Source of the DNA: an uncultured Candidatus Saccharibacteria bacterium
Lineage (GTDB): Bacteria > Patescibacteriota > Minisyncoccia > UBA6257 > JAGOQP01
Assembly (NCBI GenBank): GCA_964420205.1
Contig: CAYQSO010000002.1
Span: forward strand, 7,765 to 71,764
DNA length: 64,000 nt
Direction of reading: 5' to 3'
In this document: positions 11,053 to 57,179 of the stretch, one piece after another
Layout: each line of letters opens with the position of its first letter
Numbering within the stretch: position 1 is the stretch's first letter
Notes under the pieces: generated by a model
The model's database searches: none
Told to the model about the DNA's origin: nothing
What the model saw: only the letters and a program-made list of their open reading frames with translations
Position numbers and translations under genes: made by a program

Positions 11053-11481
11053 TTAAACTAAACTACTAACTAAAAAGACCAAACTTGAAATTATTATACA
11101 AATATACACTACACATCTTAAAAATGTGAAGTATTTTTCAAAATTCTTATCCATATATTTCTTATATTGTTGTTTAGATTTTTTTAACCAGTACCCATCT
11201 ACACAAGTAAGAATTACTCCGGGAGCAACAAACATATAAGTACTAGAATCAAACAAATGTGTAGATACTGCTGAAGCTTTTCTCGGTTTATCCATACTTT
11301 GTAAAAAGAATAAATATATCCCCAAAGGGCAAAGTAAAAACAGTATTCGTAAAAATAGATCAATACTTTTGAAAATAACCTCTAATAAAAAGATAAAAAA
11401 TACTTTAGTATAATCTGCGCCAAGTCTGTTAGCTTTCGCAGATATTTTTTCTATTGCTTTTAATTTTAGTTTTTTTAGCAT
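11053..11481 (-). CDS. integral membrane protein
   Basis: Several hydrophobic helices (FFIFLLEVIF, ILFLLCPLGIYLFFL, ICIIISSLVFLVSSLV). Confidence 0.4.
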   Translation of the reverse strand: MLKKLKLKAIEKISAKANRLGADYTKVFFIFLLEVIFKSIDLFLRILFLLCPLGIYLFFLQSMDKPRKASAVSTHLFDSSTYMFVAPGVILTCVDGYWLKKSKQQYKKYMDKNFEKYFTFLRCVVYICIIISSLVFLVSSLV

Positions 11482-12625: not shown

Positions 12626-13960
12626 TCATTCTAAAACAATTACATTTGAAGTTACTAATTCGCTTTTTCTTGCTTCATTGTACTCTCTTTTGTTGTTGCT
12701 TGCAACAACTACTTGAGTTTGTTTTAACACTCCACAAGCTTTACTAACTCTAACAGAATTAAAGTTAGTTCCCGACAAGCCATCGGTACATGTATTCCTT
12801 ACTTCATTAAGTAGGATATAATCTTTACAGTTCTTGAGATTAACTGCTGCATTGTAGTCTCTTTGGTGCTCTGCACCACAATTACTACATTTCCAGTTTC
12901 TATCTTTTAATTTTAGTTCTTTATTCTTCTCTCCACAGCTACTACATAACTTACTACTTGGAAAGAATTTATTTACTTCTCTTACTTCTATATTATGTTT
13001 TGTACACTTCTGTACAAGAACTTGTTTAAAATAGTAAGGTTTATTTTGAAGAATAGTTTTAGAAAGATGTTTGTTCCTAACCATTCCTTTAATATTTAAG
13101 TTTTCAACTGTAACATATCTAGGTTTCCCCTTAACTATGTTATCTATACATTTATTAGTATAAGAGTTTCTTATTTGTTCTAACCTGTAGTACACTTTTT
13201 CTACTCTTAGTTTATTTTTAATATAATTGTTACTTACTTTATCTCTCTTTTCTTTCTTCTTAGCTTCGTACTTTCTACTTAAAGCTCTCTGTTCTCTTCT
13301 TAATTTCTTTTCTAACTTTTTAACTCTAGTAGTTTTATTAATGTTTTTGTATTCTTCTTTGTTAGAACATGTTAAGAAAGTACTTATTCCCCAATCAATA
13401 CCAATACCTTCATTACAATTCTTATTATCTTTACTACTCTCTTCATCTGTTATAACAGAGATGAAATATCTATTAGATCTCTTAGTTATTACTCCACTTA
13501 TTATTTTATTGTTTCCTGTAGGGAGGTATCCTTTCTCTTTCAGAGAAACCTCTCCGAACATAGGAATTTTAATTTTATGCCTAGAACATCTTATAGGTCT
13601 GTTTGCCTCTACTCTAACAAAATAAACTCCTGTCTTGTCTTTAGAAGCTTTTTTAAATTTAGGAAATCCTTTCTTTGATTTAAATGCTTTTTGGTAAGTT
13701 GAATTACAATTATCTATAGTCTTTCTAAGAGCTTTACTCCCTGCTTCTTTCAACCAATGTTTATCTTCGTTCTCTTTTAAATAAACATTATTAAACCATT
13801 TAGAGAACTCGTAGTTATTAAGATATTTTTCTCCTGCGGAGTAACGTTCTTTATTAACAGAAATAAAAAGATTCCAGACAAATCTACATGCAGAAATTGT
13901 AAGCTTGTAAAGCTTCTCCTGTTCTTTATTTAGTTTTACTTCTGTCTTGTAAGCTTTCAT
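12626..13960 (-). CDS. tnpB: TnpB (IS200/IS605-family OrfB; OMEGA RNA-guided RuvC nuclease), copy 1
   Basis: Canonical MKAYKTEVKLNKEQEKL N-terminus, C-terminal zinc finger CSSCGEKN...CSNCGAEHQRDYNAAVNL (RuvC-III). The track ORF extends to 14086, but Met43 at 13958..13960 is the likely start, judged by alignment to copy 2. Confidence 0.85.
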   Translation of the reverse strand: MKAYKTEVKLNKEQEKLYKLTISACRFVWNLFISVNKERYSAGEKYLNNYEFSKWFNNVYLKENEDKHWLKEAGSKALRKTIDNCNSTYQKAFKSKKGFPKFKKASKDKTGVYFVRVEANRPIRCSRHKIKIPMFGEVSLKEKGYLPTGNNKIISGVITKRSNRYFISVITDEESSKDNKNCNEGIGIDWGISTFLTCSNKEEYKNINKTTRVKKLEKKLRREQRALSRKYEAKKKEKRDKVSNNYIKNKLRVEKVYYRLEQIRNSYTNKCIDNIVKGKPRYVTVENLNIKGMVRNKHLSKTILQNKPYYFKQVLVQKCTKHNIEVREVNKFFPSSKLCSSCGEKNKELKLKDRNWKCSNCGAEHQRDYNAAVNLKNCKDYILLNEVRNTCTDGLSGTNFNSVRVSKACGVLKQTQVVVASNNKREYNEARKSELVTSNVIVLE

Positions 13961-13993
13961 TGATAAAAAGAAAAGTTCTAAGAAATTATTTTG

Positions 13994-14057
13994 TAAGCAG
14001 ATACAATTCTTCCTAGAACTAAAATTAATATAAATCTTATTTAATTGTATCTGCTTA
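13994..14057. repeat. perfect 15-bp inverted repeat (taagcagatacaatt / aattgtatctgctta) with 34-nt spacer in the presumed IS left end
   Basis: Read directly from sequence (13994..14008 and 14043..14057); lies between the real tnpB start and the over-extended track start. Confidence 0.7.
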
Positions 14058-14175
14058 ATATTATAATTTAACTTAAAATTTTTCATTTAGATTTCCCTGT
14101 AAAGGTATTAAAAATGAATATGTTTTACATATATTTGATTATGTTATGGGAGACTGTTCATTATCTTCTCTCCTC

Positions 14176-15069
14176 TTAATTAAATACAGTACTTGTTTCA
14201 CGATGTTTTTCTCTTATATTTCCTATGCAAATGGAGGGTGCTTTTAATTCTATTAAAGTTTTATGGAGAGATATATCTCCCTCCCCTCTCCTTTGTAGTT
14301 TAGCTAAAACATCGGCTACTTTTATAAAAGTAATATTTTCTTTTATTACTTTAGAATCAAAAGCACCATCTATAAAAATTTCCTCATCCTGTTTACACGG
14401 AACTTTTAATTTTACCATTTCACCAGTTTCTGTATCGAACTGTAAATAAAATATTTGTCTATCTCTATTGTAAGTATTTTTATCATGTCTTGTAAAAGAC
14501 CCTATTCTATATAAGATACTATTTCCCACAAAAAGATCATCATACGGCGAATGATCATGATTAAGACACACATACTTATAATTAAGTTTTTTAATATCTT
14601 CTGCTGTTAAAGACTCTTCAAGGCACAAATCCATCTCGTAATAATTGTGTCCTAAAAGTACACCCTCATTCTTCTCATCTACTGGTATTTTACTAATATT
14701 CTTTTCACATAGAGAGACCCCAAACAAAACATTATCTAAATAAAAAAAGTTAGTCTTTACGTCTATTACACCTGTTAACATCAAAGAGCCTAATGTAGTT
14801 TTTTCTAAATTATAATTTCTTAACATTACATCGTGGTTTCCGGGAATTACAATAAACTTCCCTTTGTGCCGTTTAAAGAACTTATAGACTATATTAAAGA
14901 AAAAAGTACTATTTGCAAAACTATGAAATAAATCTCCTGGGATAATACAAACATCATTATTATTTGCAACGTATTCTAGTTTATCTAAAGTACTTTGGAG
15001 AAAATTATCTTTTCTTATACGAGGATTCCTCTCTTGTAAATGTATATCATTTATTATTGCTATTTTCAT
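14176..15069 (-). CDS. SbcD/Mre11-like calcineurin-type nuclease (T4 gp47-like)
   Basis: Metallophosphoesterase motifs INDIHL, PGDLFH, PGNHD and GHNY...H; downstream of an SbcC-like ATPase. Confidence 0.65.
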   Translation of the reverse strand: MKIAIINDIHLQERNPRIRKDNFLQSTLDKLEYVANNNDVCIIPGDLFHSFANSTFFFNIVYKFFKRHKGKFIVIPGNHDVMLRNYNLEKTTLGSLMLTGVIDVKTNFFYLDNVLFGVSLCEKNISKIPVDEKNEGVLLGHNYYEMDLCLEESLTAEDIKKLNYKYVCLNHDHSPYDDLFVGNSILYRIGSFTRHDKNTYNRDRQIFYLQFDTETGEMVKLKVPCKQDEEIFIDGAFDSKVIKENITFIKVADVLAKLQRRGEGDISLHKTLIELKAPSICIGNIREKHRETSTVFN

Positions 15070-16884: not shown

Positions 16885-17243
16885 TATTCATCCTCTTTAT
16901 CATCTACTTGCGTACGTATAAATAATTCATTAAAAATTTCTTGTATAAGATCATCCGGTAGTTTTAAAATTTCTCTAATTACACTGTCAACATTGGTCAT
17001 TCCCACATATTCCATATCATCGGTACTATCATAAAACCCTGCCCAATCACAGTAGTCACAACCTTCCCCAAAACATTCATCACACTTTTCTACGGCTTCT
17101 CTGAAATCTCCCCTAGGGTCAAGCTGCCCTTCTGTTCCAAATCTATCATTACTTTTTAAATTATTTAAAGCATCTTGAAGCAAATTACAAAGACCACTTG
17201 ACGAACCATTTTCCAGTATATTTTTGAAAAAATCTTTACTCAC
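16884..17243 (-). CDS. acidic CxxC protein (possible Rad50 zinc-hook-like fragment)
   Basis: CDECFGEGCDYCDW cysteine pairs; 119 aa; overlaps the upstream ORF by 8 nt. Confidence 0.3.
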   Translation of the reverse strand: MSKDFFKNILENGSSSGLCNLLQDALNNLKSNDRFGTEGQLDPRGDFREAVEKCDECFGEGCDYCDWAGFYDSTDDMEYVGMTNVDSVIREILKLPDDLIQEIFNELFIRTQVDDKEDE

Positions 17244-18489
17244 AACTATTTCCTACTAATAATTGACCACATTTATCACAACGGTATTTCTCATACTCTT
17301 TTAATTTAACATCTGTATCAAATATTTTTTTATCTAGTATATTTTCATTTCTAGTACAACTCTCTATATCCGACTCAATCTCTTCTACCAATTTTATACT
17401 CTTTACTACTTCTATATATTTGTCACTAATTGTTTCTACTAAATCTATTTTATCTTGTTGCTTTACTATTTTACAATAATTACTTAGAGATTTCAACTCA
17501 CCTAAAGCGTTTTTTAAAAGAATATATTTATTCAGTATTTTTAAAGATATTTCTTCTATGGGAATTAAGTCTATTTGAAATTGATTCTCTATTTCTTCCA
17601 GTTCTATTAAAGCACTTAAAATCTTCCCGTACTCAATTAAACTATCAAAAGAAATTATCTCTTCTTTATTTTCTCCCCCTATTATTTTACAGTAGTAGTA
17701 TATCTCTTTGAGTTCTCTTAAACTCTTTACAACCTCAACATACTCATTTAGTATATCGTAAGGCCTTACTTCTACTTCAGTAGTATCCTCGATAATATTT
17801 AGATAATTAACTGTCTCTTCTACTGCTTCTATACTAATAGAAACCTTAGAAAAGTCCTTATTTAATTTAATAAGATTATCTCGTACTCTTTCTAAATTTT
17901 CTTTTTTAACACTCTTCTGTAAGTCTTCTATTAAAATAATTTTATCTTTATTTCTCTGAAACTCTATTTCTTTCTCTTTTATCTCAGAAGAAAGTAAATC
18001 TTCTTCCTGTTTATAGGCTTGAAAAATCTTAGCACTATCTGAAACAGAAAATATATTTTCAAATAATTTAAACAACTCCGAGTTTGTTAGCCCGTAAGGA
18101 AATAGTATTTCTTTTATTCCTTCTATATTATAACACTTATTCTTATTCCCGTCATAAGTAAAACCAGTATCTTGTAGTAACTTAAATAGATTAGAGTTCC
18201 CTACTTTCTTATACTCCTCACCATTAATTATATACATAGATTCTTTCTTAGTACGTACCCATGTAATATCATTACCATTATATAGCATACGTACTTTTGC
18301 ACAATCTGTTCCAATTCTTATTTTATTTTGAGACCCCGATGGATTAAGTAAAAGATATTTTAACGCCCTAAAAATTGCAGACTTACCATTCCTACTTTCA
18401 CCTGTTATAAGAGTTAACCCTTTATTAAAAACAATATGTTCTTTTTTAATAATCTCAAAATTTTCTATAAATAATTCTAATTTATTCAT
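17236..18489 (-). CDS. SbcC/Rad50-like ATPase, N-terminal lobe with coiled coil (T4 gp46-like N-half)
   Basis: Walker A GLTLITGESRNGKSAIFRALKY at the N-terminus, then about 300 aa of coiled coil ending in CDKCGQLLVGNSC. Confidence 0.65.
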   Translation of the reverse strand: MNKLELFIENFEIIKKEHIVFNKGLTLITGESRNGKSAIFRALKYLLLNPSGSQNKIRIGTDCAKVRMLYNGNDITWVRTKKESMYIINGEEYKKVGNSNLFKLLQDTGFTYDGNKNKCYNIEGIKEILFPYGLTNSELFKLFENIFSVSDSAKIFQAYKQEEDLLSSEIKEKEIEFQRNKDKIILIEDLQKSVKKENLERVRDNLIKLNKDFSKVSISIEAVEETVNYLNIIEDTTEVEVRPYDILNEYVEVVKSLRELKEIYYYCKIIGGENKEEIISFDSLIEYGKILSALIELEEIENQFQIDLIPIEEISLKILNKYILLKNALGELKSLSNYCKIVKQQDKIDLVETISDKYIEVVKSIKLVEEIESDIESCTRNENILDKKIFDTDVKLKEYEKYRCDKCGQLLVGNSCE

Positions 18490-38353: not shown

Positions 38354-41300
38354 TTAGAGCGGTTTCGGTATTAAAGTAGTACGTGATTCATCATCTACCC
38401 ATTTAAAATCGAATATTTGTCCAAAACGATACCCCAGTCCAATTGTAGCTTTAATAGGCAAAGGCCAATCTGGTAAGCTAAAATACATTATATCTTCTAT
38501 TAACCTAGTGTATTCTACTATTTTATCTAAATCAACATAAAGGTTCACTTCGTCATGTATTGTCGAAAGAAAAGCACACTCTTTTTCTTTTTCGGATATA
38601 CTAAATATTTTCTGATACATCTTCTTAAGAACTATACGCATAATATCCCCCGCACTTCCCTGGATTATGTGGCTGCTGACTCTTCTCTCAGCAGCAGATA
38701 TCATATTATTTGACTCTCTTTCACCTTTCCTAGGGTCTTCTGCTTCTCTTTCTATCCTCTCAGCCATATTTACATATGACCCGAAGCGTCTGGGCCTCCC
38801 ACAGAACGTAAATGTAGTTCCGGCATTATTCCACATCTTATTTATTTCATTTTGTCTCCATTGCATAGCCCCAAAAAAAGCTTCACAATAGGCATCATAA
38901 AGAGCTGTTGCGTGTTCTAACGGGATTCCAGAATTCTTAGATATGGAATCAGAATGACCACTATAATTTATAGCAAAATTCACAGCCTTTGCTATTTTTC
39001 GTAGCCCCTTGTTATAATTTTCTCTACCCCATATAGCGTACGCTGTCGCAGTATGTGGATCAATACCTTCCCTGAAATTTGATAACTTTACACTATCTTT
39101 ACTGTAATTAGTAAGGAGAACGTCTTCCTGTGAACTGTAATCCACACTCAAAATAATCTTTTTCTTACTATTAACCTTTTTAAATGATGGAACTACTACA
39201 CAATTTCTAATATTAAAATTAGGGGAGAACCCTTCTACTAAATAACAGTCTTCTGAGTCAGTGTGGTTTTTAATGTCTTCATCAGACATTAAATCAAAAC
39301 ACCAACCTAATATATTACCCTCTTTCTCAGATTTGTATGCTTTATAAATCGCTCCTGACGGTTTACTAAGATTCTGCGCATTAAGATCTATATAATAGGG
39401 GTTCTTAGTCTTCTTATCACTCTTACTCCCATTACCACTTGCAAATCTCCCTGAAGCGGTCCCAAAAAGTTTATATCTCATCCTACACTCATCTACCTTA
39501 GTCAGTTTATCAATGTAACTATTGATAGCCTTATTCATAGTAGAGTACTTCTGTATCTTCTTTAAAATACTTAACTTTTCATTTTCTTTTTTAAGCATTA
39601 TTTTTAATATTTTTAAAAAATATTTTCTATTGAGAATTCTACTTCCTTTTTTAAGCGGAACTAGTTTCTTATTTTTATTCTTTCTTTTCGCTCTGCTCAA
39701 TACTCTTATAGTATTGTTATTCAACTGCATTACTTGGAAATAGTCACTCCCATGTGCTTCTAGTATTTTATATAAATAAAACATATCTACGTGTTCTCTT
39801 ATATGTAATTCTGAAGCACAAAATCCTTTTGTAAAATAACCTTCTTCATTCTTTTCTAATTTTTCTATAATACCTCGTAAATCTGTTAAATTCTTAGAAA
39901 ATATTCTTGTACCATCTTTTTTACCAAAAGAAATCTGATCTGTATCTGTCCTTGCCCCAGTATCTATATTCTTAGATGCCATAGCATTTTTAAACTCTTT
40001 AGAAGAGGTACTAAGGTTGAATATTCCTATATCAAAATAATTATATATTTCCTCCTTAAGCTGAGTTATTACTTCGATAGCTTTTTCTTTATATTTTTTA
40101 GCTTCTTCTTTATCTATATAAAGTTTAGTATGTCCATAATAATCAATCCAATACCTTATAAGAGTGTTGTCTGATTTTATAACGTCAAATTTTTTACCGT
40201 TAAACTCTACTATATTGGGGTAAGTACTTATTAGTTTTTTAACTTTCGGATATAAATAGTAAAAAAGTGCCAAGCAGCAACATGAGTCTGCACAATTACC
40301 CGAAACCAAGACTTTACCATTTCTTCTAGTTATTAAAGTGTGATTTGGTACTTCTGCACAATAAACCACCCCACTATATGGAACAATTTCTCTCTGGTAT
40401 TTCTTGTATCTAACACTTTTCTGTCTTTGTGTGTACACACTATAAATTTGGTGCACATTTTCTCTTTTTATTACACGTCCTCTAATAACACAGTCTTTTT
40501 TAGGTGGTGCTTTTAAAGTTAATATACTAGTCCTACCACCCAACATTAATAGCTCTTGTAACTGATTAGCCATTTTGATAGATGTAGTATAAAAAACCCA
40601 CGCTGAGTCAGTTTTTCTAGACCCATCACAATAATTAAAATATTTTAGAAACTCATTTATACAGTACGAATCCATTTTAAAAATTTCAGGTGGAATATAC
40701 TTTTTCTGAGCCTTACCTTCCATATAAGGTTTTATCCAATTATAAAACTTTTTATTATAACAAACCCAGCTATTCCCTTTTTCTCTTTTGTTAGGGCGAA
40801 ACCCCATATTAGTTTCCATTAACATATTTTCTAACTCTTTTTTGAATTTATCGCTACAAACAGCCAGCCCTATGTGATAACAAACTTGCTTGTCGCCTCT
40901 TTGAACAATCCAACCATCTGCCAACAACGCACCTGTTAATCTGGCTAATTGTACAGGGGTTAAATTAACATTCTTACTAAAATGAAAAGAATCCTTCCCA
41001 CTACCTTTCTTCTCTGTGGGAGCTTTATAACCGCTTTCTTCAACTAAAAGATCTTTTGCCTGTTTGAATACCCATTCTTTATGTTGTGCTCGCTTAACTA
41101 GCATATTATGGTTGGGGGTAACACAAAAATCAAGATGTTTACTTTTATAAGAAATCATCTCTCCTTTATATTCATACGCATATAACCTTAGAGGACGCTG
41201 GTACTCTAATTCATCTTTTTCCACATTTACAGTAGCTAAAAGGTCTTCTCCATTATAATCTTTCCACATTACCCAACCATTTTCAGTCAATACTTCAGTC

Positions 41301-42319
41301 TGATCATCGTGGCATGCATAAATAACTGTGCTCCTATCGTAGGGGCATACATACTTGAATTCACCCGGAAATTCTAACATAGTACGTCCTAGATACAATT
41401 TAGCACTTAACTTAAGTCCTGCCATTTTTGACTCCGCATCAAAAAGATACGGAAGTATCATAGAGTCAAAAAAGTTAACTTTTTCAATAGAATAACCTTC
41501 TTTCTTATACATATTAAGGTCAAATTCAGCATTATGGATTACTACTAACTTTGCACTTGTTAAAGCTTTATATAAAATATCAAGGGACTTTTTTGCACTT
41601 CTCTCATTTTCTTCTTCTGTTAAAACATAACTAGAAACTTCCATTTCAGATAAATGCTTTTCAAAGTCTCCTATCATACAGTCTATACTACCAAGTTTAG
41701 CTTCTACTACTTCTTTTTCTAAATCTTTAGAATTTTCAAGAAAGTTTTCTTTATCTTGTTTTAACCCATCTATTAATTTTTGCGTCTCTTCTCTTTGTCT
41801 CTGTAATTCTAATTGCTCCCTTACTTCTTTGCTACATATATTTCCATTATGTAATGAATACTCATACGTCTTTACCGTAGTCTGACTTACTCTTCCTGTT
41901 TTAGTATATACTACATTTCCTTCTTCATCTAATTTAGGAACTTTTTCTGAACCCACTTCTTTTTTTCGCATATGTCTCAAAGGGCAATAAATCCCCGAAT
42001 TGTCGTCCAGTGAAAGAGAGAACCCTACAATGTAATCACCACCTTCTTCTCGAGGTGAACTGTTCAGTCCAGTAGTTTCAGTGTCAAACCCGATTATCTT
42101 ATCTTTACAAAGTTCTACGAATTCTTCCAACTCTTCTAAAGTATTAACAAGTTTATAGTCCCCTAAATAAATAAGATTCCCTTCCTCATCGTATTTATGA
42201 AACTTATTATCAAACTCTCTATAACCATGTACAGGTATATATTTGTACAACGTTTTACTGCTTTTTTTCTTTTGTTCTACCTTTTGTTGAACATATTTTT
42301 TCTTATAATCTTTTGTCAT
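38354..42319 (-). CDS. family A DNA polymerase (3'-5' exo plus polymerase domains) precursor containing an intein
   Basis: Exo I IGFDTETTGL; polymerase motif A LSVDYSSQE, motif B RKIAKAVNFAINYS, motif C LSTIHDEVN. The likely true start is MTKDYKK, 12 codons inside the track ORF (which begins at 42355). Confidence 0.85.
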   Translation of the reverse strand: MTKDYKKKYVQQKVEQKKKSSKTLYKYIPVHGYREFDNKFHKYDEEGNLIYLGDYKLVNTLEELEEFVELCKDKIIGFDTETTGLNSSPREEGGDYIVGFSLSLDDNSGIYCPLRHMRKKEVGSEKVPKLDEEGNVVYTKTGRVSQTTVKTYEYSLHNGNICSKEVREQLELQRQREETQKLIDGLKQDKENFLENSKDLEKEVVEAKLGSIDCMIGDFEKHLSEMEVSSYVLTEEENERSAKKSLDILYKALTSAKLVVIHNAEFDLNMYKKEGYSIEKVNFFDSMILPYLFDAESKMAGLKLSAKLYLGRTMLEFPGEFKYVCPYDRSTVIYACHDDQTEVLTENGWVMWKDYNGEDLLATVNVEKDELEYQRPLRLYAYEYKGEMISYKSKHLDFCVTPNHNMLVKRAQHKEWVFKQAKDLLVEESGYKAPTEKKGSGKDSFHFSKNVNLTPVQLARLTGALLADGWIVQRGDKQVCYHIGLAVCSDKFKKELENMLMETNMGFRPNKREKGNSWVCYNKKFYNWIKPYMEGKAQKKYIPPEIFKMDSYCINEFLKYFNYCDGSRKTDSAWVFYTTSIKMANQLQELLMLGGRTSILTLKAPPKKDCVIRGRVIKRENVHQIYSVYTQRQKSVRYKKYQREIVPYSGVVYCAEVPNHTLITRRNGKVLVSGNCADSCCCLALFYYLYPKVKKLISTYPNIVEFNGKKFDVIKSDNTLIRYWIDYYGHTKLYIDKEEAKKYKEKAIEVITQLKEEIYNYFDIGIFNLSTSSKEFKNAMASKNIDTGARTDTDQISFGKKDGTRIFSKNLTDLRGIIEKLEKNEEGYFTKGFCASELHIREHVDMFYLYKILEAHGSDYFQVMQLNNNTIRVLSRAKRKNKNKKLVPLKKGSRILNRKYFLKILKIMLKKENEKLSILKKIQKYSTMNKAINSYIDKLTKVDECRMRYKLFGTASGRFASGNGSKSDKKTKNPYYIDLNAQNLSKPSGAIYKAYKSEKEGNILGWCFDLMSDEDIKNHTDSEDCYLVEGFSPNFNIRNCVVVPSFKKVNSKKKIILSVDYSSQEDVLLTNYSKDSVKLSNFREGIDPHTATAYAIWGRENYNKGLRKIAKAVNFAINYSGHSDSISKNSGIPLEHATALYDAYCEAFFGAMQWRQNEINKMWNNAGTTFTFCGRPRRFGSYVNMAERIEREAEDPRKGERESNNMISAAERRVSSHIIQGSAGDIMRIVLKKMYQKIFSISEKEKECAFLSTIHDEVNLYVDLDKIVEYTRLIEDIMYFSLPDWPLPIKATIGLGYRFGQIFDFKWVDDESRTTLIPKPL
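40295..41314 (-). mobile_element. intein in DNA polymerase (about 340 aa, LAGLIDADG type) inserted in the Exo III motif (YA|C..D)
   Basis: VIYA|CHDDQTEVLTENGW...LARLTGALLADGW...FLKYFNYCDGS...VPNHTLITRRNGKVLVSGN|CADSCCCLALFYYL; the extein junction restores the Y-x-x-x-D exo motif. Coordinates by residue counting (aa 348..687). Confidence 0.6.
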
Positions 42320-42644
42320 TATTAAAATTAACTCCTGTACTAGATAAACCAACATTAGTGAAATTAAAATCTTTGTACTTCCACCAATCTTTTTTCTTCA
42401 TCATCTTTTTAACTTTTCTTGGGTACTTATCCCACCTACAGTACTTCCCGATACCTAATATGTAATTAAATATTATTAATTTTACTCTATTTTCTATATT
42501 AGTTTGAATTTCTCCCACACATTCGCCATAGGGCTCTCTTACAGCAGAAGTAGCAGTATCTCTTGACTCACATAAATATTGAGACGATATTCCTGTTGCC
42601 ATAACAATGTCTTGTCTTAATTTATATAATCTCTCTTCTATCAT
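42303..42644 (-). CDS. hypothetical protein
   Basis: 113-aa ORF upstream of the polymerase. Confidence 0.3.
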   Translation of the reverse strand: MIEERLYKLRQDIVMATGISSQYLCESRDTATSAVREPYGECVGEIQTNIENRVKLIIFNYILGIGKYCRWDKYPRKVKKMMKKKDWWKYKDFNFTNVGLSSTGVNFNNDKRL

Positions 42645-48363: not shown

Positions 48364-49083
48364 CTATTTTTTAAGTTTCCTACTTCTACGTCGCCATAAA
48401 ATACTTTGTCTTACCTGCTCAAAAACATGCTTATGGTAATTATCATATTCTGCTGTAGGTATTGAGTTACAATGTAGAAGCCCCTCTTCTATAGTAGACC
48501 TACTACTTAGTAACTCTTTAGAATATTCATCTATAGTTCCATTAACTATTATAAACCTTATTTTAAATATATCAAACTTACCAAACATCCTAGCAATACG
48601 CCCAATAACCTGCCTAAATTTGCGATACGCAGTGGGTACTGTATAAAGGATAAGTTCATCAGTAGGATTAAGATTAAGAGAGGCTCCCCCCGCATCACTA
48701 ATAAAAACTATCTTTCTTTCTGGATTATCATGAAACCAGTCTTCTACTTCTTTTCTTTTGTGTGTTTTCTCAACACCTGTTATCTTTTTACACTGAACGT
48801 TAATGTCTTTACTTTTTATAAATTCTATTAAATTAGAGATTGTTTTTACTCTTTTTGCATAAACAACTACACCTTTATCTATAATCTTTTTACCAGAATC
48901 CTCATCCACTACCTCAGCCAATACTTTAAAGAACAAGTCTTTTTTCTCATCGGTATTATCTACATATTCCTGCATATCGGCAAGAGCAGCACCGACATTT
49001 AACTTCTTTTTCTTCTCTTTAGAAGAGTTACTCTTCTTTATTATATTTAGTGCTTTTTGTAGATTTAGATTTATCTTTGGCAT
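48364..49083 (-). CDS. SF2 helicase, C-terminal domain (motif VI)
   Basis: FRQVIGRIARMFGKFD corresponds to helicase motif VI (QxxGRxxR); continuation of the upstream ORF after a frame change. Confidence 0.5.
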   Translation of the reverse strand: MPKINLNLQKALNIIKKSNSSKEKKKKLNVGAALADMQEYVDNTDEKKDLFFKVLAEVVDEDSGKKIIDKGVVVYAKRVKTISNLIEFIKSKDINVQCKKITGVEKTHKRKEVEDWFHDNPERKIVFISDAGGASLNLNPTDELILYTVPTAYRKFRQVIGRIARMFGKFDIFKIRFIIVNGTIDEYSKELLSSRSTIEEGLLHCNSIPTAEYDNYHKHVFEQVRQSILWRRRSRKLKK

Positions 49084-49891
49084 TTTTTTCCAACCCTATC
49101 TTTATTATACTATCATACTCTTTATAGTCTTTTAACTCAGTAGTATATTCAAAAAACTTTAAATTTATTTTAGGGAAATAAAAATAAGTAAACGATTCGA
49201 GCTCTTTTCTTAGTCCTGAAATATTAATGTACTCTACAGGGTCCATTCTAAGAAACTTCCCCCTCCAATCTTTAACTTCTTCTTCTACTATATATTTTTG
49301 TTTAAATTCCTTTATAGCACTGCTTAAATATTTATAATATTTTTCCGGTCTTACCAAACACATCATACCTAAAACCTGTAACAAAGAACTCGACCACGGG
49401 GTAGCTGTCATCGCTATGATTCTATCCCACATAAAATAAATTTTCTGGTAAGCACCGTGAACTATAGAATCGTAGTTATTCATTTCGTGTGCTTCATCTA
49501 TAATTAGTAATATCTTCTTATAATTCTTAGTTAAAGACTTTTTAAAGAATTGAATGTTTTCTTCATCTAACCCAATATCCTTAATCATAGAATGTTTTAT
49601 TAAAATTATTTTATCATCACCCTCAACAGCCTTTTTAAAATCTTCTACTAATTCAATTATACTTAGTTTTATACCTAATTTTTCAGCATCTTTAATAAAA
49701 GGAGTCGTTGCTGAAGGTGTTGCTACAATAACTATTTTATCTATCATTTTATTTTTATACAAATAACGTCCTGTAAAGACCGAGGATAGGGTCTTACCTG
49801 CACCTGCTGATACAAACCATAAACACTTCTTAATATTTATAGCAAATTTAGCTGCGTTTTGCTGATAATCTCTTAAAACTATTTTTTTCAT
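49028..49891 (-). CDS. SF2 helicase, N-terminal RecA-like domain (motifs I, II, III)
   Basis: Walker A FVSAGAGKTL, DEAH box LIIDEAHEM and motif III MTATP. Overlaps the downstream ORF by 56 nt in another frame. Confidence 0.6.
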   Translation of the reverse strand: MKKIVLRDYQQNAAKFAINIKKCLWFVSAGAGKTLSSVFTGRYLYKNKMIDKIVIVATPSATTPFIKDAEKLGIKLSIIELVEDFKKAVEGDDKIILIKHSMIKDIGLDEENIQFFKKSLTKNYKKILLIIDEAHEMNNYDSIVHGAYQKIYFMWDRIIAMTATPWSSSLLQVLGMMCLVRPEKYYKYLSSAIKEFKQKYIVEEEVKDWRGKFLRMDPVEYINISGLRKELESFTYFYFPKINLKFFEYTTELKDYKEYDSIIKIGLEKNAKDKSKSTKSTKYNKEE

Positions 49892-50406
49892 TATGGATTG
49901 AATACCTCTGGGTAACCTGTAAAAGTTTCAATCCCGTCTATATGAACATACCCTTTAGGAACAGTTACTTTGTCTATTTCTATTCTTTTAAAAAATTTTA
50001 ATCTACCTTGTATCATCAAATCCCATATAAAATTAAAAAATAACTGATACTGCTTATTAGCAGGTTCTAAATCAAAAGCTCTAAAAGAACAATGAGCACT
50101 TAAATAAGGTATTTTCTTACCTTTTACAATAGAATCTATGTTTGACCTCAATCCTCTCTGTGTCATATTACCATTAAAAGCCCACGTATTTATAAAAATG
50201 CCCTTAGACAGGACTTTAAGATCAGAGAAGGTATCACAATATTCTTCCCACTTTTCTCTTATAAAATCTAACTCCCTCGGAGCTTGTTCAGGGAACATTA
50301 ACCATAAAAATTCCTCTCCAAAACGAGGAACATAATAATTATATACTAAAGGGCTAACTAACTCCTTTAAAATAAAATGTTCACACTTATACATACTACA
50401 CACCAA
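49891..50406 (-). CDS. LAS-superfamily zinc peptidase (M15-like), possible peptidoglycan hydrolase
   Basis: SAHCSFRAFDL fits S-x-H-x4-A-x-D and the downstream GYVHIDG fits the second His ligand of M15 peptidases; 171 aa. Confidence 0.4.
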   Translation of the reverse strand: MVCSMYKCEHFILKELVSPLVYNYYVPRFGEEFLWLMFPEQAPRELDFIREKWEEYCDTFSDLKVLSKGIFINTWAFNGNMTQRGLRSNIDSIVKGKKIPYLSAHCSFRAFDLEPANKQYQLFFNFIWDLMIQGRLKFFKRIEIDKVTVPKGYVHIDGIETFTGYPEVFNP

Positions 50407-51312: not shown

Positions 51313-52071
51313 CTATATCTCTATTACTAAATCTTCTTGAAAACCTGTGTCTTCATTAGGGTATCCTAATTGGTTGCTAATAAAAACTACCTCACCGTTA
51401 GTAAAGGGTTTACTAATTCTATGAGAACAGTGAGTATGCCCTGAAAACCAATATGTACAGAGTCTCTCTGCTTTATTAAAATCATCAGTCAAATCAACTT
51501 CGAAAGCATACTTCAGTACACTATTACTTTCTGTTAAAAAAGGTTGATGGTGTGTTACTACTATACAGACCTCTTTACTATTATTTAACTCATTAAAAAT
51601 ATATTCTTTACTTTGTTCATATAAGTAATTAACGAAAAACGGAGTTATCCCTTTATAATTAAGTTTTTCAGTAGTAATATATTTATAATCATTTAAACCA
51701 AACTGGATATTATAAATATCTGTCGAATTCATTCTATTGAAATCTGTCCAAAGCGTACTTCCTATAAACCTGACATTATCTATTACTACTGAACTATTAT
51801 TTAAAAAGAAATATCTATCATTTTCTTCAGACTTCTCTTTCATTCTCCTATCTATCTTTTCCATCCTATGACTAGAATAATATAGATGATTTCCAGGAAC
51901 CTCTACTATTTTTAAAATAGGGTATTTTTTTAATAATTTATCAGAAAATTCCCACGCTGTAAGACCCTCACCTATATCTCCAGCAAGACACAAAACATCT
52001 ATACCCTCTAAATTAGGTTCATAATCTAGTCTAAACCCTAAATGTATATCACTAAATAATTTTATTTTCAT
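51313..52071 (-). CDS. calcineurin-like metallophosphoesterase
   Basis: MKIKLFSDIHLG, LCLAGDIGEG, VPGNHLYY and GHTHCSHR motifs. Confidence 0.7.
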   Translation of the reverse strand: MKIKLFSDIHLGFRLDYEPNLEGIDVLCLAGDIGEGLTAWEFSDKLLKKYPILKIVEVPGNHLYYSSHRMEKIDRRMKEKSEENDRYFFLNNSSVVIDNVRFIGSTLWTDFNRMNSTDIYNIQFGLNDYKYITTEKLNYKGITPFFVNYLYEQSKEYIFNELNNSKEVCIVVTHHQPFLTESNSVLKYAFEVDLTDDFNKAERLCTYWFSGHTHCSHRISKPFTNGEVVFISNQLGYPNEDTGFQEDLVIEI

Positions 52072-52108
52072 TTTAATAGTTTAAACTATTTTAAAAATTT
52101 AGTCAAGT

Positions 52109-53026
52109 CTAAGCTAAAATAGAAATAAGTTTGTTTATTTCTTTTTTCCACTCACCTTCTATGTAATCATAAGTAAGATTTATAAGGTTTGGGATATTCT
52201 CTATTGTGTTCATTGCATCTAATTTTTCTGGGAGAATTGGATTAAACACGAATCTACGATCTTCGTCTAGTAATTTTTGAATAGCATAGCTTGTCGTATC
52301 ACTTTGCCCATCATTCACTATGTCGAAGAGAGAAGATGCCCAATTAAATACTGTCCAATTCTTAATCTTATTAAAAGGTATTGAATAAGAATAACTACCT
52401 GTCCCAATACTTACTACTATTACTTCTTTATCTGGGAACATCTTTTTTGCTTCAATATACCCATATATTGTAGGATCATTGGCAAAAACACCCCCATCTA
52501 TCAGAGACATACTTCCTATCTTATAAGGTGGGAAGTATGTAGGAGCCGCACTAGTTGCACGAGCAAACTTCCATATCTCAATATCCTCATATATCTCTTG
52601 AGTAGAATTTATAAAACGGGCTTGTCTATCTTTAGTATCATACATAGTAGTTATGACAGGATTACTTAAAGTTGTTAAAGTATACTCACCTAGCTTCTCC
52701 TTTAAAATACCTTCGATGCCCTCTGAAGAATGTTTATGTTTGATATAATTTATAGGCCACTTAAAAATTCTTTTATCAAAAATTTTTTTAGCCGACTCAC
52801 CTGTAAAGAAATCTATTACGTCTTTTGTAGTATACCCTTGCCTACACGTATAAAGATAAGATAAAATACCCCCTACAGAAGTACCTATAAAAGCATCAAA
52901 TAAATCTCTCGGCTGCTTCCCCGTTAAATTAAAAATATGGTGAAGCAAAATAGCTTGTATAACTCCTTTACAACCCCCACCCGAAAGACTAAGTAATACT
53001 ACCCTATTTTTACCTATTTTCATCAT
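52109..53026 (-). CDS. patatin-like phospholipase
   Basis: Oxyanion loop SGGGCKG, nucleophile elbow GTSVGG (GxSxG), ATSAAPTYFPP and DGGVFANDP (catalytic Asp). Confidence 0.8.
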   Translation of the reverse strand: MMKIGKNRVVLLSLSGGGCKGVIQAILLHHIFNLTGKQPRDLFDAFIGTSVGGILSYLYTCRQGYTTKDVIDFFTGESAKKIFDKRIFKWPINYIKHKHSSEGIEGILKEKLGEYTLTTLSNPVITTMYDTKDRQARFINSTQEIYEDIEIWKFARATSAAPTYFPPYKIGSMSLIDGGVFANDPTIYGYIEAKKMFPDKEVIVVSIGTGSYSYSIPFNKIKNWTVFNWASSLFDIVNDGQSDTTSYAIQKLLDEDRRFVFNPILPEKLDAMNTIENIPNLINLTYDYIEGEWKKEINKLISILA

Positions 53027-53339
53027 CTCTAAAATTTTTAAAACTACTACTAAGAATTATATTAACTTTTGCATCTAATCCTGTTACAGACTTTAATATT
53101 TCTGTATTAGAATTTTTTAAATCATTAAAAGCTCTTTGTAACTCTCTTAATGCTTCATTGTCCGCTTTCTTTTCTATTTTATCATAAATTTCTTTTCTAC
53201 ATTTTTGTTGGCATTGTACACAAGACTCATTTGTTTTAAATGCGTTACTAAGAAATTCTATGACTTTCTGAATAGCATTAATTATTATATAGAGTACTAT
53301 AAAGGCACCTAAACCTACTACATAATATATTGAATCCAT
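53010..53339 (-). CDS. small membrane-anchored coiled-coil protein
   Basis: N-terminal TM helix YYVVGLGAFIVLYIIINAI, CVQCQQKC, then predicted coiled coil; overlaps the patatin gene start by 17 nt. Confidence 0.35.
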   Translation of the reverse strand: MDSIYYVVGLGAFIVLYIIINAIQKVIEFLSNAFKTNESCVQCQQKCRKEIYDKIEKKADNEALRELQRAFNDLKNSNTEILKSVTGLDAKVNIILSSSFKNFRDDENR

Positions 53340-54810
53340 TATTGTTCTCCTTACCTATTGACTTTTAATCTGTTGAACTAAAGACTCTATATACAAATCA
53401 AACTGCTCCAAATTAGTAACTTTAAACATAATTTATCCTACTTGAAGTTACTAATTCGCTTTTTCTTGCTTCTCCAGTATACCTGTTAGGTATACAATCG
53501 TACTCTCTTTTATCACCAGAGGCGACTACTTGAGTTTGTTTTAACACTCCACAAGCGTTAATTCCCGACAAGCCATCGGTATTTACACTATTTAACAATG
53601 TGTATTCTTTACAATTCTTAAGGTTTACTGCTGCATTGTAGTCTCTCTGGTGCTCTGCACCACAACTACTACATTTCCAGTTCCTATCTTTTAATCTTAA
53701 CATATTATTTTTAGTATTACAAATACTACATAATTTAGATGAAGGGTAAAATCTACCTACTTCTCTTACTTCTATATTATGTTTAGTACACTTTTGTGTT
53801 AGAGTTTGTTTAAAGTAATAAGGTTTATTTTGTAGGGTAGCTTTACTTAGATGTCTGTTTTTAACCATTCCTTTTACATTAAGGTTCTCAATAGAAACAA
53901 ATTTAGGTTTCTTCCTAACTATATCATCAATACACTTATTAATGTAGGAATTTCTTATTTGTTCTAACCTATAATGAAGTTTAGAAACTTTATCTTTATT
54001 CTTTATATAATTGTTAGAAACTCTATCTCTTTTCTCTTTTTTCTTGGCCTCGTACTTCCTATTTAAAGCTCTCTGTTGTCTTTTAAGATTTTTTTCTAGC
54101 TTCTTAATCTTAGTAGTCTTATTAATATTTTCGTAACTAGTACTATTAGAACATGTCAAATATGTACTAATCCCCCAGTCAGCACCAATTCCTTCATTAC
54201 AATTCCTGTAATCTCTCGTACTCTCCTCGTATACTATAACAGAGATAAAATACTTACTAGCTCTCTTAGTTATTGCTCCACTTATTATTTTATTAGACTC
54301 TATAGGAAGATATCCTTTTTCTTTTATGTGTATCTCTCCAAACATAGGAACTTTTATCTTGTGTCTCTCACATTTAATAGGTTTATCTAAAGATGCTCTT
54401 ACAAAATATACCCCTGTCTTATCAGTAGAAGCTTTTTTAAATTTAGGAAATCCTTTCTTCTCCTCCATAAATTTAACATAAGTATTATCACAATTCATCA
54501 TTGTCTTCCTAAGAGCTTTACTTCCAGCTTCCTTTAACCACTGTTTATCTTCATTCTCTTTGAGATACTCATTATTGAACCATTTACTAAAGTTGTAGTT
54601 ATTAAGATATTTTTCTCCTACGGAGTATCTTTCTTTATTAACAGAGATAAACAAATTCCAGACAAACCTACAAGCTGAAGTAGTAAGCTTGTAAAGCTTT
54701 TCCTGTTCCTTATTTAATTTTATCTCTGTTCTATAAGCTTTCATTAATGGGACTGTTCTATCTTTTATACTCATCAAATGTGTAAAATAATGTTATTAAA
54801 ATTTAATTTA
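53340..54810 (-). mobile_element. second TnpA-less IS605-family element (boundaries approximate)
   Basis: tnpB copy 2 with a 10-bp inverted repeat aattagtaac/gttactaatt flanking its stop codon (53411..53456) and a 3' flank partly shared with copy 1 (aaacataat). Confidence 0.45.
53422..54744 (-). CDS. tnpB: TnpB (IS200/IS605-family OrfB; OMEGA RNA-guided nuclease), copy 2
   Basis: MKAYRTEIKLNKEQEKLYKLTTSACRFVWNLF N-terminus; CSICNTKNN...CSSCGAEHQRDYNAAVNL C-terminus. Roughly 70 percent identical to copy 1 by eye. The track start at 54777 is 11 codons upstream of the canonical MKAY start. Confidence 0.85.
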   Translation of the reverse strand: MKAYRTEIKLNKEQEKLYKLTTSACRFVWNLFISVNKERYSVGEKYLNNYNFSKWFNNEYLKENEDKQWLKEAGSKALRKTMMNCDNTYVKFMEEKKGFPKFKKASTDKTGVYFVRASLDKPIKCERHKIKVPMFGEIHIKEKGYLPIESNKIISGAITKRASKYFISVIVYEESTRDYRNCNEGIGADWGISTYLTCSNSTSYENINKTTKIKKLEKNLKRQQRALNRKYEAKKKEKRDRVSNNYIKNKDKVSKLHYRLEQIRNSYINKCIDDIVRKKPKFVSIENLNVKGMVKNRHLSKATLQNKPYYFKQTLTQKCTKHNIEVREVGRFYPSSKLCSICNTKNNMLRLKDRNWKCSSCGAEHQRDYNAAVNLKNCKEYTLLNSVNTDGLSGINACGVLKQTQVVASGDKREYDCIPNRYTGEARKSELVTSSRINYV

Positions 54811-55509
54811 GTTTGCTTTTATTTGGCCTATTAAGACGTTAACGTACAAATCAAACTCTACATCCGTCATATTTATTATACTATTTGCATTACCCATTAT
54901 AGCCATCGCAAACTGATTTAATTGTTGCTCCGTCATAGTAAATACTGCTATTGCTAACTGTTCATTAGCTGTTCTTATTTTATTACTTATTTTTACATCC
55001 AGCTCTGTTAAATCATCTACTTTTTGTGTGATCAAATCTCTTATTCTCTCTACCTCAAAAGAATCTATGGAAATTACTTCATCTAAACCTGTATCATAAT
55101 GTTTAATTTTATGTTTCTTTATACTACCGGATTTCATAGCAGTAAGCACAAGATCACTCAATGTTTCTTCAAGGAGATTTAACTTAGCAATAACTTTATA
55201 CCCATCTGCTTTAGTTACCTGTACTGGAAACGATAAAGCTCTATATTCACTTGCTTTTTCTAAATAAAAATTAAGCCCGTTTTCTCTAAGTAATTCTATG
55301 TCTAATAGCTTTTCTCTATAATAAGGGTAATTATCCATTGGTTCATACTCTTTACCATCATCAGGAATTTCAACTAAATTATAAAAAGAGCTATTTTCAC
55401 ATTCTGTATTATTCTTACTATAAATTATACTTAATGTTTCTTTATCTAATATTCTACAACTTTTATACACTATTAAAAACTCCTCTTTGTTGTAAATATA
55501 ATTTCCCAT
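54808..55509 (-). CDS. hypothetical protein
   Basis: 233-aa ORF directly upstream of the tail-fibre genes. Confidence 0.3.
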   Translation of the reverse strand: MGNYIYNKEEFLIVYKSCRILDKETLSIIYSKNNTECENSSFYNLVEIPDDGKEYEPMDNYPYYREKLLDIELLRENGLNFYLEKASEYRALSFPVQVTKADGYKVIAKLNLLEETLSDLVLTAMKSGSIKKHKIKHYDTGLDEVISIDSFEVERIRDLITQKVDDLTELDVKISNKIRTANEQLAIAVFTMTEQQLNQFAMAIMGNANSIINMTDVEFDLYVNVLIGQIKAN

Positions 55510-57179
55510 TTAGAGTATGTTATTCTGCATTCTTCTATACCCGCTTCTCTAATAACTGCAAATGGTTGAAGAGTTCCAGCAGCTCTAGTTGTATGAGTTA
55601 TTCCAGTTAATTTATTTAATTTATAAACATATTCACTAGAGTCAAAAACGCCATCAATACTTTTACCAAACCCTTTTGCTTTTTCACCTACCTCATATCC
55701 ATATTCAGAAGAAATACATATTAATTCATTTTCACTCTTGCAGTCTGAACCAATATTATGGCTAAATGATATATTTGTTAATGCTGTTGATGGAATAGCA
55801 CTTTGTATGACTGATTTACCATTTAAAGCATAACTTATGGGTGTTCCAAGTATTCCACCTGTTTTTGTAACTTCACCTAATTTAACAAATTGTGTTTCAA
55901 TCCAAGCACCCCCACCATATTTATATGGAATATATGGTTTAACAGATATATCTAACCAATAATCACCACTTGAAGGTGTTGCTGGTTCACTATAACTTTC
56001 GGTTATTGTACCACTACATAATGAAGCAGTTGTATTACCTTTTTCAATTATAATATAATACGTATCATCAGAAGATAATTCACTTGAAATATTTGCTAAA
56101 CTTTCAAATGTTGAAACAGTTCCATCTGGAAAAGTACAAACTAAATTTTCATAGCTTGTTCCACCATCTACATCAAAACTTACTTCTGTATCTGATACTT
56201 TATTAATAAAATCAGCATATCCATCTGAGTCTCTATATGCACTATTTACTGAATAAGTAGTATATATATCAGGTTGTAAGCTTATTAGTTGACTATAGTT
56301 TACTGCGTCATAATTAGATACCCCGTTAGCTACTTCAAAATTAACAGAACTATCTCCTAATCTCTTTGCATAATCTCCTACAACACTATAAGCTATTTCT
56401 CTACATCCAGTAGCACTAAACTCGTAAATTCCCACATCACCAATTTGTGTAACTCTATTAGTTCCTCTTAATAATACCAAACTTGTTGCATTATATGTTA
56501 AAGTTCTCACAGTATTCCAACGTATTACAGCAATACCTTTTGTCCACCCTGTAATAGATGTTATGGTTTCTCCCCCATTCGCTATAAAAGAATTACTTGT
56601 CTCATCTAACGTTAATACACCGCCAGATGAAGTTTTGGAAACAGAATTTGGTTGGTGCAAGGCACCTGTCATAGTATCCCCTGCTTTTTTTACCCATCTA
56701 TCTTGGTGAGCATTGAGATCTAAGTTATGTGCGTTTACATCCCCAGCAGCATAAATAAAATTAAATACACCTGCTCCTGAGCCTTGTGAAAATTGTACTT
56801 CTACATCTATCTGATAATTTACAATTTCTGAATATGTAATAGCATTTCCATCGGGAGGATGTATAATTGCTAAAAGATATGTACTACCGCCATTAGTATT
56901 CGCATATAAATATAACTCATTTATTAAACTACCGTCTACTATAGGAACTTCATCGGAAGACGGTGGAATAATCATAGATATCTCTATTTTATTATCGGAA
57001 ACTGTTGCTACTGGATTAAAGGTATCGGTGAACCACGTTGGATTTGCAATTGTTCTTGTGGGGTCTAATGTCCCTTGAACAGATGATACTGCAAAAGAAG
57101 TTACATTTATAAGACTTGGATTAGCTAAAACTTCTGATAATGCTTGTGCTGTAAGCACCCCTGTAAATGAATTTGACAT
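55473..57179 (-). CDS. tail fiber protein
   Basis: Contains the widespread tail-fibre motif KAGDTMTGAL, is rich in Ser/Thr/Asn/Gly, and is positioned after the baseplate genes. Confidence 0.55.
   Translation of the reverse strand: MSNSFTGVLTAQALSEVLANPSLINVTSFAVSSVQGTLDPTRTIANPTWFTDTFNPVATVSDNKIEISMIIPPSSDEVPIVDGSLINELYLYANTNGGSTYLLAIIHPPDGNAITYSEIVNYQIDVEVQFSQGSGAGVFNFIYAAGDVNAHNLDLNAHQDRWVKKAGDTMTGALHQPNSVSKTSSGGVLTLDETSNSFIANGGETITSITGWTKGIAVIRWNTVRTLTYNATSLVLLRGTNRVTQIGDVGIYEFSATGCREIAYSVVGDYAKRLGDSSVNFEVANGVSNYDAVNYSQLISLQPDIYTTYSVNSAYRDSDGYADFINKVSDTEVSFDVDGGTSYENLVCTFPDGTVSTFESLANISSELSSDDTYYIIIEKGNTTASLCSGTITESYSEPATPSSGDYWLDISVKPYIPYKYGGGAWIETQFVKLGEVTKTGGILGTPISYALNGKSVIQSAIPSTALTNISFSHNIGSDCKSENELICISSEYGYEVGEKAKGFGKSIDGVFDSSEYVYKLNKLTGITHTTRAAGTLQPFAVIREAGIEECRITYSKWEIIFTTKRSF

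Follow-up and report, generated by a model that had tools for sequence, protein, structure and literature searches.

The patatin-like phospholipase encoded in a 64,000-nucleotide stretch of contig CAYQSO010000002.1 (hereafter the window) is read here, with somewhat better than even confidence, as a late-made, signal-independent membrane lipase that assists envelope disruption at lysis. The window is a novel phage genome of ~30% G+C with all of its genes on the minus strand, and the region has no nucleotide match among GenBank phages. An earlier note on this DNA had offered lysis or membrane attack as one possible role of the enzyme, and this is the reading best backed by gene context, both in the window and in related phages and prophages (designated below by L and a number); the context of the relatives is the most informative evidence. 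Lysis is favoured because the patatin follows a GH108 endolysin in four of four related prophages and overlaps a late gene in L007, and because a small transmembrane (TM) partner recurs and M15 or Amidase_2 lysins occupy the slot between the FEN and SNF2 genes.

By motif, profile score and fold, the protein is a catalytically complete patatin of the PNPLA family, and lipase activity is predicted. It matches the Pfam model Patatin (PF01734) with an E value of 1.1e-27 and 98 bits (cut-off 27.7). The complete patatin catalytic apparatus claimed for it earlier is indeed present, with all three motifs in place: the oxyanion loop S15-G16-G17-G18-C19-K20-G21, the nucleophile elbow G48-T-S50-V-G52, and the catalytic aspartate in D177-G-G179. 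Conservation of the serine and aspartate on alignment had been named as a check, and both residues, together with G16-G18, G48, G52 and the remainder of D177-G179, are invariant in alignments with 6 close and 24 broader homologues. Additionally, S50 and D177 align with S58 and D192 of the defence effector AbCapV. The AlphaFold2 (AF2) model of the protein is of good quality (predicted local distance difference test, pLDDT, 86; predicted template modelling score, pTM, 0.87), and a Foldseek search with it gave an E value of 2e-20 and a template modelling score of 0.84 both to plant patatin-17 and to the AbCapV filament bound to cyclic GMP-AMP (cGAMP). The model superposes less well on CapE and PlpD, and poorly on ExoU and VipD (scores of 0.3-0.5). 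The first beta-strand of the fold comprises residues 8-14, and the protein therefore has no signal peptide. The two neighbouring open reading frames (ORFs) described in the earlier note, for a phosphoesterase and a membrane protein, exist as well, and all three genes lie on the minus strand (Table 1).

The patatin gene sits at the junction of structural and DNA-metabolism genes. Upstream are genes for a baseplate wedge protein, a tail protein, a Tail_P2_I protein, a virion protein and a tail-fibre-like protein; these baseplate and tail-fibre genes span 63453-55473 and are followed by a gene for a 233-residue protein, a TnpB insertion, a gene for a 109-residue membrane protein, and the patatin gene. 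Downstream lie FEN, a split SNF2 helicase, DnaB, DNA polymerase, ribonucleotide reductase, thymidylate synthase, dUTPase, ligase and methyltransferase genes. The neighbours of the patatin are the TM protein, a calcineurin-like metallophosphoesterase (MPE), FEN and TnpB. The patatin gene borders the tail module, as it does in the "patatin-based lytic cassette" proposed for Wolbachia phage WO, in which a patatin and a holin-like protein lie beside the tail module (Bordenstein & Bordenstein 2022, PMC9203015). No integrase or lysogeny genes were found among the window ORFs scanned, and the phage, which has its own polymerase, ribonucleotide reductase and helicases, looks virulent and myovirus-like.

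The closest relatives of the patatin form a clade of proteins of ~300 residues that share 42-51% identity. For instance, in L007 (45% identity) a tail fibre gene is followed by a gene for a 212-residue protein, and then by the patatin gene, which overlaps it by 8 nucleotides; co-transcription of the patatin with late genes is suggested by this overlap with the gene that follows the tail fibre. A 308-residue protein of L007 resembles the window's 568-residue tail-fibre-like protein at its C-terminus, and, apart from the absence of TnpB and of the 109-residue gene at the patatin, the order is the same as in the window. In L004 the order is patatin, MPE, an unassigned gene, FEN, Amidase_2 and SNF2, such that Amidase_2 fills the FEN-SNF2 slot where the window has an M15 peptidase. 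L092 is a 190-kb low-G+C phage contig whose 300-residue patatin groups with the window clade, and 10 nucleotides after this gene starts one for a 103-residue protein that begins with a hydrophobic helix and has a charged tail (7992-9215 for the pair). A related sample originates from a biogas plant, and the relatives are contigs from anaerobic digesters.

The nearest phage-borne outgroup is a clade of 333-residue patatins (37-38% identity) from prophages with a GH108 endolysin. All four loci examined (L005, L088, L089 and L090) have a tail module (Phage-tail_3), the GH108 endolysin and the patatin in this order; the endolysin and patatin genes are separated by 12-15 nucleotides or overlap, and after the patatin the coding strand switches. 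These elements are temperate phages or prophages, siphovirus-like and of 32-34% G+C, and L088 has an integrase gene nearby. Other phage-borne relatives are few: the only GenBank phage proteins that match the patatin are those of Wolbachia phage WO and one uncultured phage record, a scan of IMG/VR with the close-clade alignment gave no confirmed relatives, and a scan of JGI metagenomes gave no member of the close clade, with matches only at ≤39% identity.

In comparison, the cellular relatives (≤39% identity, 80 GTDB loci) have heterogeneous contexts. All-versus-all clustering of the neighbours at 87 loci revealed no dominant partner family, and the commonest domains among 100 genes adjacent to the cellular relatives were PG_binding_1 (6 genes) and PG_binding_3 (3 genes), both of which bind peptidoglycan and count in favour of the lysis reading. 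The sister group of the window clade consists of standalone chromosomal patatins. Those of L006 (3732-5939) and L172 (4702-6939) are 325 residues long, and each is preceded by a conserved protein of 735-745 residues that has no Pfam match; alpha-amylase genes lie near. These two genes may be a cellular unit that gave rise to the phage patatin.

The 109-residue protein encoded immediately upstream is a candidate holin-like or anchor-like partner of the lipase. Its gene has a strong AAGGAG ribosome-binding site, and its last 17 nucleotides overlap the start of the patatin gene. The TM segment is a strong one, with a mean Kyte-Doolittle value of 2.27, and 35% of the residues in the C-terminal tail are charged. 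The earlier note had described a TM/coiled-coil protein overlapping the patatin; the TM helix and the overlap were found, but the coiled coil was not supported. Neither a coiled coil nor a topology is established, given a weak heptad periodicity and little charge bias across the TM helix. No homologue besides the protein itself was found among 5.8 billion proteins. However, in three unrelated phages (the window phage, WO and L092) the patatin is adjoined by a small protein whose N-terminus carries a TM helix and whose tail is charged, and BLASTP detected no similarity of the 109-residue protein to the small proteins of the other two. Such an architecture occurs in only 1-2 of ~80 window ORFs, and its recurrence in three phages, despite its rarity in the window, suggests a functional pairing with the patatin, albeit one that not all related phages have. 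The gene lies outside the sequence common to both TnpB copies, which ends at 53442. A canonical i-spanin was considered for this protein and rejected, as there is no embedded, overlapping or adjacent o-spanin lipoprotein gene: no other minus-strand ORF of at least 20 codons was found within 53010-53339, and the overlapping downstream gene is that of the patatin, not of a lipoprotein. As a separate observation, a C-x2-C-x3-C cluster (Cys40, Cys43 and Cys47) immediately follows the TM helix; these cysteines could bind metal or form disulfides, depending on the side of the membrane that they face.

A candidate endolysin is encoded three genes downstream of the patatin. The 171-residue ORF itself has no Pfam, PHROG or NCBIfam match and no meaningful profile match in the PDB. 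A deep profile search with it retrieved 273 relatives, and in 95 of these the residues H101, D108 and H151 are invariant, forming a His-Asp-His zinc triad (S-x-H-x-x-G-x-A-x-D ... H-x-D). Among the 95, 29 match Peptidase_M15_3 (PF08291), 8 match M15_4 (PF13539) and 7 match M15_2 (PF05951). The product, which has no signal peptide, is on this basis assigned by sequence as a divergent M15 peptidoglycan peptidase; its own Pfam match is nil, and membership in M15 therefore rests on the family profile.

Together, these features suggest how the patatin may act. It would be made late with the tail genes, as the overlaps in L007 and the GH108 prophages imply, and, lacking a signal peptide, would start in the cytoplasm. 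As in other members of its family, it would hydrolyse membrane glycerophospholipids through the Ser50-Asp177 dyad, and with cGAMP contacts lost and a cyclase missing (see below) it would be constitutively competent rather than gated by cGAMP. The co-translated 109-residue single-pass protein would most likely be holin-like, or would serve as a membrane anchor or timer for the lipase. Membrane damage may then let the signal-less M15 peptidase reach the wall. Alternatively or additionally, the lipase may destroy the remaining (outer) membrane after the wall has been breached, as spanins, LysB and the phiKT disruptin do elsewhere; its gene would then also stand where those of spanins, LysB or the disruptin stand in other phages.

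Several observations weigh against this lysis reading. The assignment of the M15 peptidase comes only via its relatives, with a nil Pfam score and a poor AF2 model (pLDDT 57) for the protein itself, and the patatin is not adjacent to this candidate endolysin, as the MPE and FEN genes lie between them. The putative membrane partner is an ORFan with an unsupported coiled coil and a weak topology signal; such a partner is absent from the GH108-type prophages, and none was seen in L003, L004 or L007. All genes of the window are co-directional, and therefore operon boundaries and timing are not readable from it; a promoter and terminator scan of the region gave the same result as shuffled sequence and defined no operons. 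The clues to the host and its envelope type conflict: the nearest TnpB relatives are on Clostridia plasmids, and relatives of the MPE, of an A1-like protein and of the M15 peptidase point to phages of Gram-negative bacteria. Holin, spanin or cyclase genes could exist in the 19 kb of the 83-kb contig that lie outside the window, or in unscanned ORFs. The patatin arrangement of L003 looks moron-like. Finally, a lysis role is for phage patatins in general a proposal, and the WO cassette is itself a hypothesis.

By sequence, the nearest characterised relatives of the patatin are the cGAMP-activated lipases of the cyclic-oligonucleotide-based anti-phage signalling system (CBASS), and the earlier note had suggested a hijacked CBASS or abortive-infection effector. 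On such a reading the phage would have captured a cyclic-dinucleotide-responsive CapV as a triggerable device for lysis or exclusion, or would produce a CapV mimic that soaks up cGAMP, and the neighbouring phosphoesterase, which is intact, adjoins the patatin and is conserved in L004, might degrade nucleotide signals. In support of such a reading, the PADLOC model for CBASS phospholipase effectors matches the patatin with an E value of 7e-50, its best PDB matches are cGAMP-activated lipases (9wn1, 9kh6 and 9kh7, E ~2e-24; AbCapV 8zr9, E 5.5e-16), and the NCBIfam equivalog CBASS_lipase (NF041079) is the top family match. However, the NF041079 score is 143.4 bits against a cut-off of 200; with the same model, the L005 prophage patatin scores 192.8 bits and that of L004 scores 141.6 bits. 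In AbCapV, residues F147, K149, D159, E207 and R279 are each needed for cGAMP-induced filament formation and activity (PMC12480259). In a multiple alignment, the equivalents of F147 and E207 (F138 and E192) are kept in the window patatin and conserved in every clade, which favours a CapV-like protein. In contrast, the position of K149 is occupied by N140, an asparagine found without exception in the window clade, and both phage clades lack the D159 loop. Two of the four essential protomer-A contacts to cGAMP are gone from the window patatin, as counted in an alignment that took in a segment of AbCapV without the C-terminal contacts L272, F275, R279 and E328-K332. At the K149 position, the related GH108-prophage clade has Ser, Asn, Ala or Cys, whereas 87 of the 120 best homologues have Lys or Arg; the non-basic states are concentrated in the phage-borne clades and their sister group. 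Additionally, no CD-NTase cyclase was found among ~45 window ORFs scanned (not every ORF was scanned), and no CD-NTase family is recurrent among 100 same-strand genes directly adjacent to the patatins of cellular relatives. MPEs of the neighbour's family occur commonly in phages that lack patatins, and the fold of the patatin resembles plant patatin as closely as it does CapV. A pure cGAMP sponge is further argued against by the conservation of the catalytic residues. Score, cyclase operon and cGAMP contacts all indicate that the patatin is not a CapV equivalog. With a sister group of standalone chromosomal proteins as a further point, the hijacked effector of the earlier note was not upheld, and a CBASS-related function is considered very unlikely.

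Three other explanations leave both CBASS and host lysis aside. The patatin could be a moron, that is, a toxin or host-interaction factor carried as mobile cargo that serves the infected or lysogenised bacterium or targets a third party (a eukaryotic cell or a competitor), for example of the ExoU/VipD type, with no role in release. In L003 the patatin stands alone on the opposite strand amid small phage ORFs, the chromosomal sister clade shows recent exchange, the genes around the patatin form a mosaic that includes the nearby TnpB insertion, and patatins of Burkholderia prophages have been interpreted as virulence morons (PMC2920897). A lysogenic-conversion gene is nevertheless improbable here, because the phage looks virulent and the scanned ORFs include no lysogeny genes; in contrast to ExoU and VipD, the protein also carries neither a secretion signal nor an additional targeting domain, and the fixed place after the endolysin in the GH108 prophages is atypical of random cargo. 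A moron is thus regarded as unlikely. The position of the gene after the tail-fibre and fibre-associated genes, with an overlap of the latter in L007, and its place at the border of the tail module in WO and the GH108 prophages, would also suit a virion enzyme, delivered by the tail to degrade host membrane lipid locally during DNA injection. Yet the protein consists of the catalytic domain alone and lacks any domain for tail attachment or of a structural kind, lysis cassettes commonly follow tail genes too, and the four prophages have the patatin beside an endolysin rather than beside baseplate proteins. To our knowledge, there is no precedent for a patatin in the virion of a tailed phage, and an entry role is quite unlikely. 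Lastly, patatins are broad acyl hydrolases, and this gene lies at the junction with a large block of nucleotide and DNA metabolism, near the hydrolases MPE and FEN. A non-lytic metabolic esterase could remodel or scavenge host lipids or esters during infection, for example for fatty-acid supply or to alter membrane properties. However, the window has no further genes of lipid metabolism near the patatin, and the context of the relatives is one of endolysin and tail genes, not metabolism; this is the least probable of the explanations considered.

The remaining neighbours appear to be peripheral to the patatin. The earlier note had emphasised that the enzyme is bracketed by the MPE and the TM protein; of the two, a small TM protein does recur (in the window, WO and L092), whereas the MPE family is widespread without patatins. 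All five metal-binding motifs of the MPE are intact (DIH, GD, GNH, THH and GHTH), and the MPE downstream of the L004 patatin is an orthologue with 44% identity. MPE is, however, absent next to most related patatins, and phrog_1649 relatives, which occur in 134 phage records (mostly of large lytic phages that infect Gram-negative bacteria), show no association with patatins. As regards a possible cyclic-nucleotide phosphodiesterase activity, no relative was found among solved structures, and a TIGR03729 match is weak. The MPE is probably a neighbour by synteny, with no functional link to the patatin. The phage has two distinct MPEs; the second, SbcD-like, directly adjoins TnpB copy 1, with an exonuclease-like gene nearby (14176-15069 and 17236-18489).

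The second tnpB reported just upstream of the patatin was confirmed. The two TnpB copies share 75% nucleotide identity, confined to 53442-54748 and 12646-13964, and copy 2 is absent at the patatin position in L007. Copy 2 is an insertion between the tail-fibre-associated gene and the 109-residue gene, and is outside the patatin unit. At its 3' end, the expected place of an omega-RNA, is a sub-threshold match to the RAGATH-18 RNA (53463-53555; 31.3 bits, threshold 44.9, E 0.0065). Among plasmid-borne TnpBs, the nearest are from Clostridia, with 40-45% identity.

Table 1. Positions of the patatin, its neighbours and related gene units. Positions are those of the window unless a locus is named.
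Feature	Position	Strand	Remarks
Patatin-like phospholipase	52109-53026	-	305 aa, single domain, Pfam PF01734
109-aa membrane protein, ORFan	53010-53339	-	TM helix residues 4-23, charged tail
Calcineurin-like metallophosphoesterase (MPE)	51313-52071	-	252 aa; Pfam Metallophos E 3e-9, phrog_1649 E 5e-34
Divergent LAS/Peptidase_M15 zinc peptidase (candidate endolysin)	49891-50406	-	171 aa (167 aa from ATG); three genes downstream of patatin
TnpB (IS200/IS605-type RNA-guided nuclease), copy 2	53422-54777	-	Pfam and PHROG matches
TnpB, copy 1	12626-14086		
233-aa protein	54808-55509	-	Downstream of tail-fibre-like protein; homologue of L007 212-aa protein (E 9e-8)
Tail-fibre-like protein	55473-57179	-	568 aa; ends baseplate/tail module with 233-aa protein
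GH108 endolysin and patatin, L005	5527-7002		
GH108 endolysin and patatin, L088	7527-9002		
GH108 endolysin and patatin, L089	5969-7435		
GH108 endolysin and patatin, L090	7532-9002		

Several further features of the phage genome were observed. The SNF2-type helicase is split over 48364-49891 into overlapping ORFs (ResIII/SNF2_N, 49028-49891; Helicase_C, 48364-49083). The same split is called in L002, an independent assembly, and in L004 a gene of its own encodes the N-terminal part; the split therefore looks conserved and not the result of a sequencing error. Within the 1,333-residue DNA polymerase ORF (38354-42355), residues ~345-715 match thymidylate-synthase and PhoH-like PHROGs, and in the 1,123-residue ribonucleotide reductase ORF (6557-9928) the match to the enzyme begins at residue 416 and is in two parts. 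These two ORFs may contain domain insertions or inteins. A 142-residue ORF next to the dUTPase gene (11053-11481) has three predicted TM segments and no family match; it is a possible class-I holin, at a distance from the patatin. A single tRNA gene, tRNA-Trp (CCA), is present at 5610-5683 on the minus strand.

If the lysis role is true, the idea of a patatin lytic cassette extends beyond WO to phages of free-living bacteria, both virulent and temperate, and a lipolytic enzyme joins the short list of phage means of breaching membranes (holins, spanins, LysB and disruptin). More broadly, and more doubtfully, such patatins may form a class of enzymatic envelope disruptors of phages that has gone unrecognised and that fills the spanin or holin step in many phages of low-G+C diderms well beyond Wolbachia, with CapV and the lysis lipases descended from one ancestral membrane-killing enzyme that was put to two uses. 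Cyclic-nucleotide gating (K149 and the D159 loop) would then be a gain of the defence version, and the phage version would be timed by expression and a small membrane partner. The phage lipase and CapV are near relatives that differ at cGAMP-sensing positions, and whether the lysis enzyme or the immune effector came first is testable. Similarly, the GH108-patatin prophages and the window phage offer simple systems in which the lysis hypothesis can be tested directly. The GH108-patatin arrangement and the recurring small TM partner were not found described in the literature searched. There is also a practical implication, since the GH108-prophage patatins score ~193 bits, just under the cut-off of 200, and automated annotation may therefore mislabel such phage genes as "CBASS cGAMP-activated phospholipase".

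Among known systems, CapV (AbCapV, PDB 8zr9 and 9jeh) belongs to the same single-domain patatin subfamily, with the same catalytic motifs and with equivalents of its F147 and E207 kept in the window, and the window patatin probably kills as CapV does, by degrading membrane phospholipid. It is, however, 30-60 residues shorter, and it is phage-encoded beside tail and lysis genes, whereas CapV is encoded in a defence operon with a CD-NTase. Precedents for the proposed function come from unrelated proteins. LysB is a mycolyl-arabinogalactan esterase of mycobacteriophages and a precedent for lipolytic lysis (PMC5707550), gp28 of phiKT, the "disruptin", is a non-spanin envelope disruptor, spanins being absent from ~15% of phages (10.1101/515445), and the spanins Rz/Rz1 carry out the outer-membrane disruption step (PMC6139136). 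LysB is, like the patatin, a serine esterase, and the shared role proposed is the signal-less removal of a lipid barrier by a lysis-cassette protein after holin and endolysin have acted. In fold and family these proteins are unlike the patatin, LysB being a cutinase-like alpha/beta hydrolase, gp28 a cationic peptide and the spanins non-enzymatic fusogens; the substrate of the patatin would be glycerophospholipid, and the likeness is one of analogy, not homology.

The closest parallels in gene arrangement are the GH108-patatin prophages and phage WO. As in the window, the late region of the GH108 prophages closes with the patatin, behind the tail genes, the K149 position is non-basic and the D159 loop is absent. 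In contrast to the window, their patatin directly follows the GH108 lysozyme and has no adjacent small TM partner, whereas the window has an M15 peptidase as its lysin, at a distance of three genes. WOVitA1 has, in this order, the tail module, an ankyrin protein, a 71-residue protein with a TM helix and a charged helical tail, and the patatin. The WO patatin is 31% identical to that of the window, and both lie beside a tail module with a protein of <150 residues that has an N-terminal TM helix and a charged tail, although the two small proteins have no detectable sequence similarity. The WO cassette contains ankyrin (and sometimes PLD) genes and no peptidoglycan endolysin, for which the patatin would substitute, whereas the window has a candidate M15 endolysin and no ankyrin protein in the neighbourhood. 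Additionally, WO keeps a lysine at the K149 position where the window clade has asparagine, and WO is from an insect endosymbiont whereas the window phage looks virulent and has relatives from digesters. Overall, the window fits the proposed WO-type cassette in the position of the patatin and, as to size, TM helix and charged tail, in the architecture of its partner.

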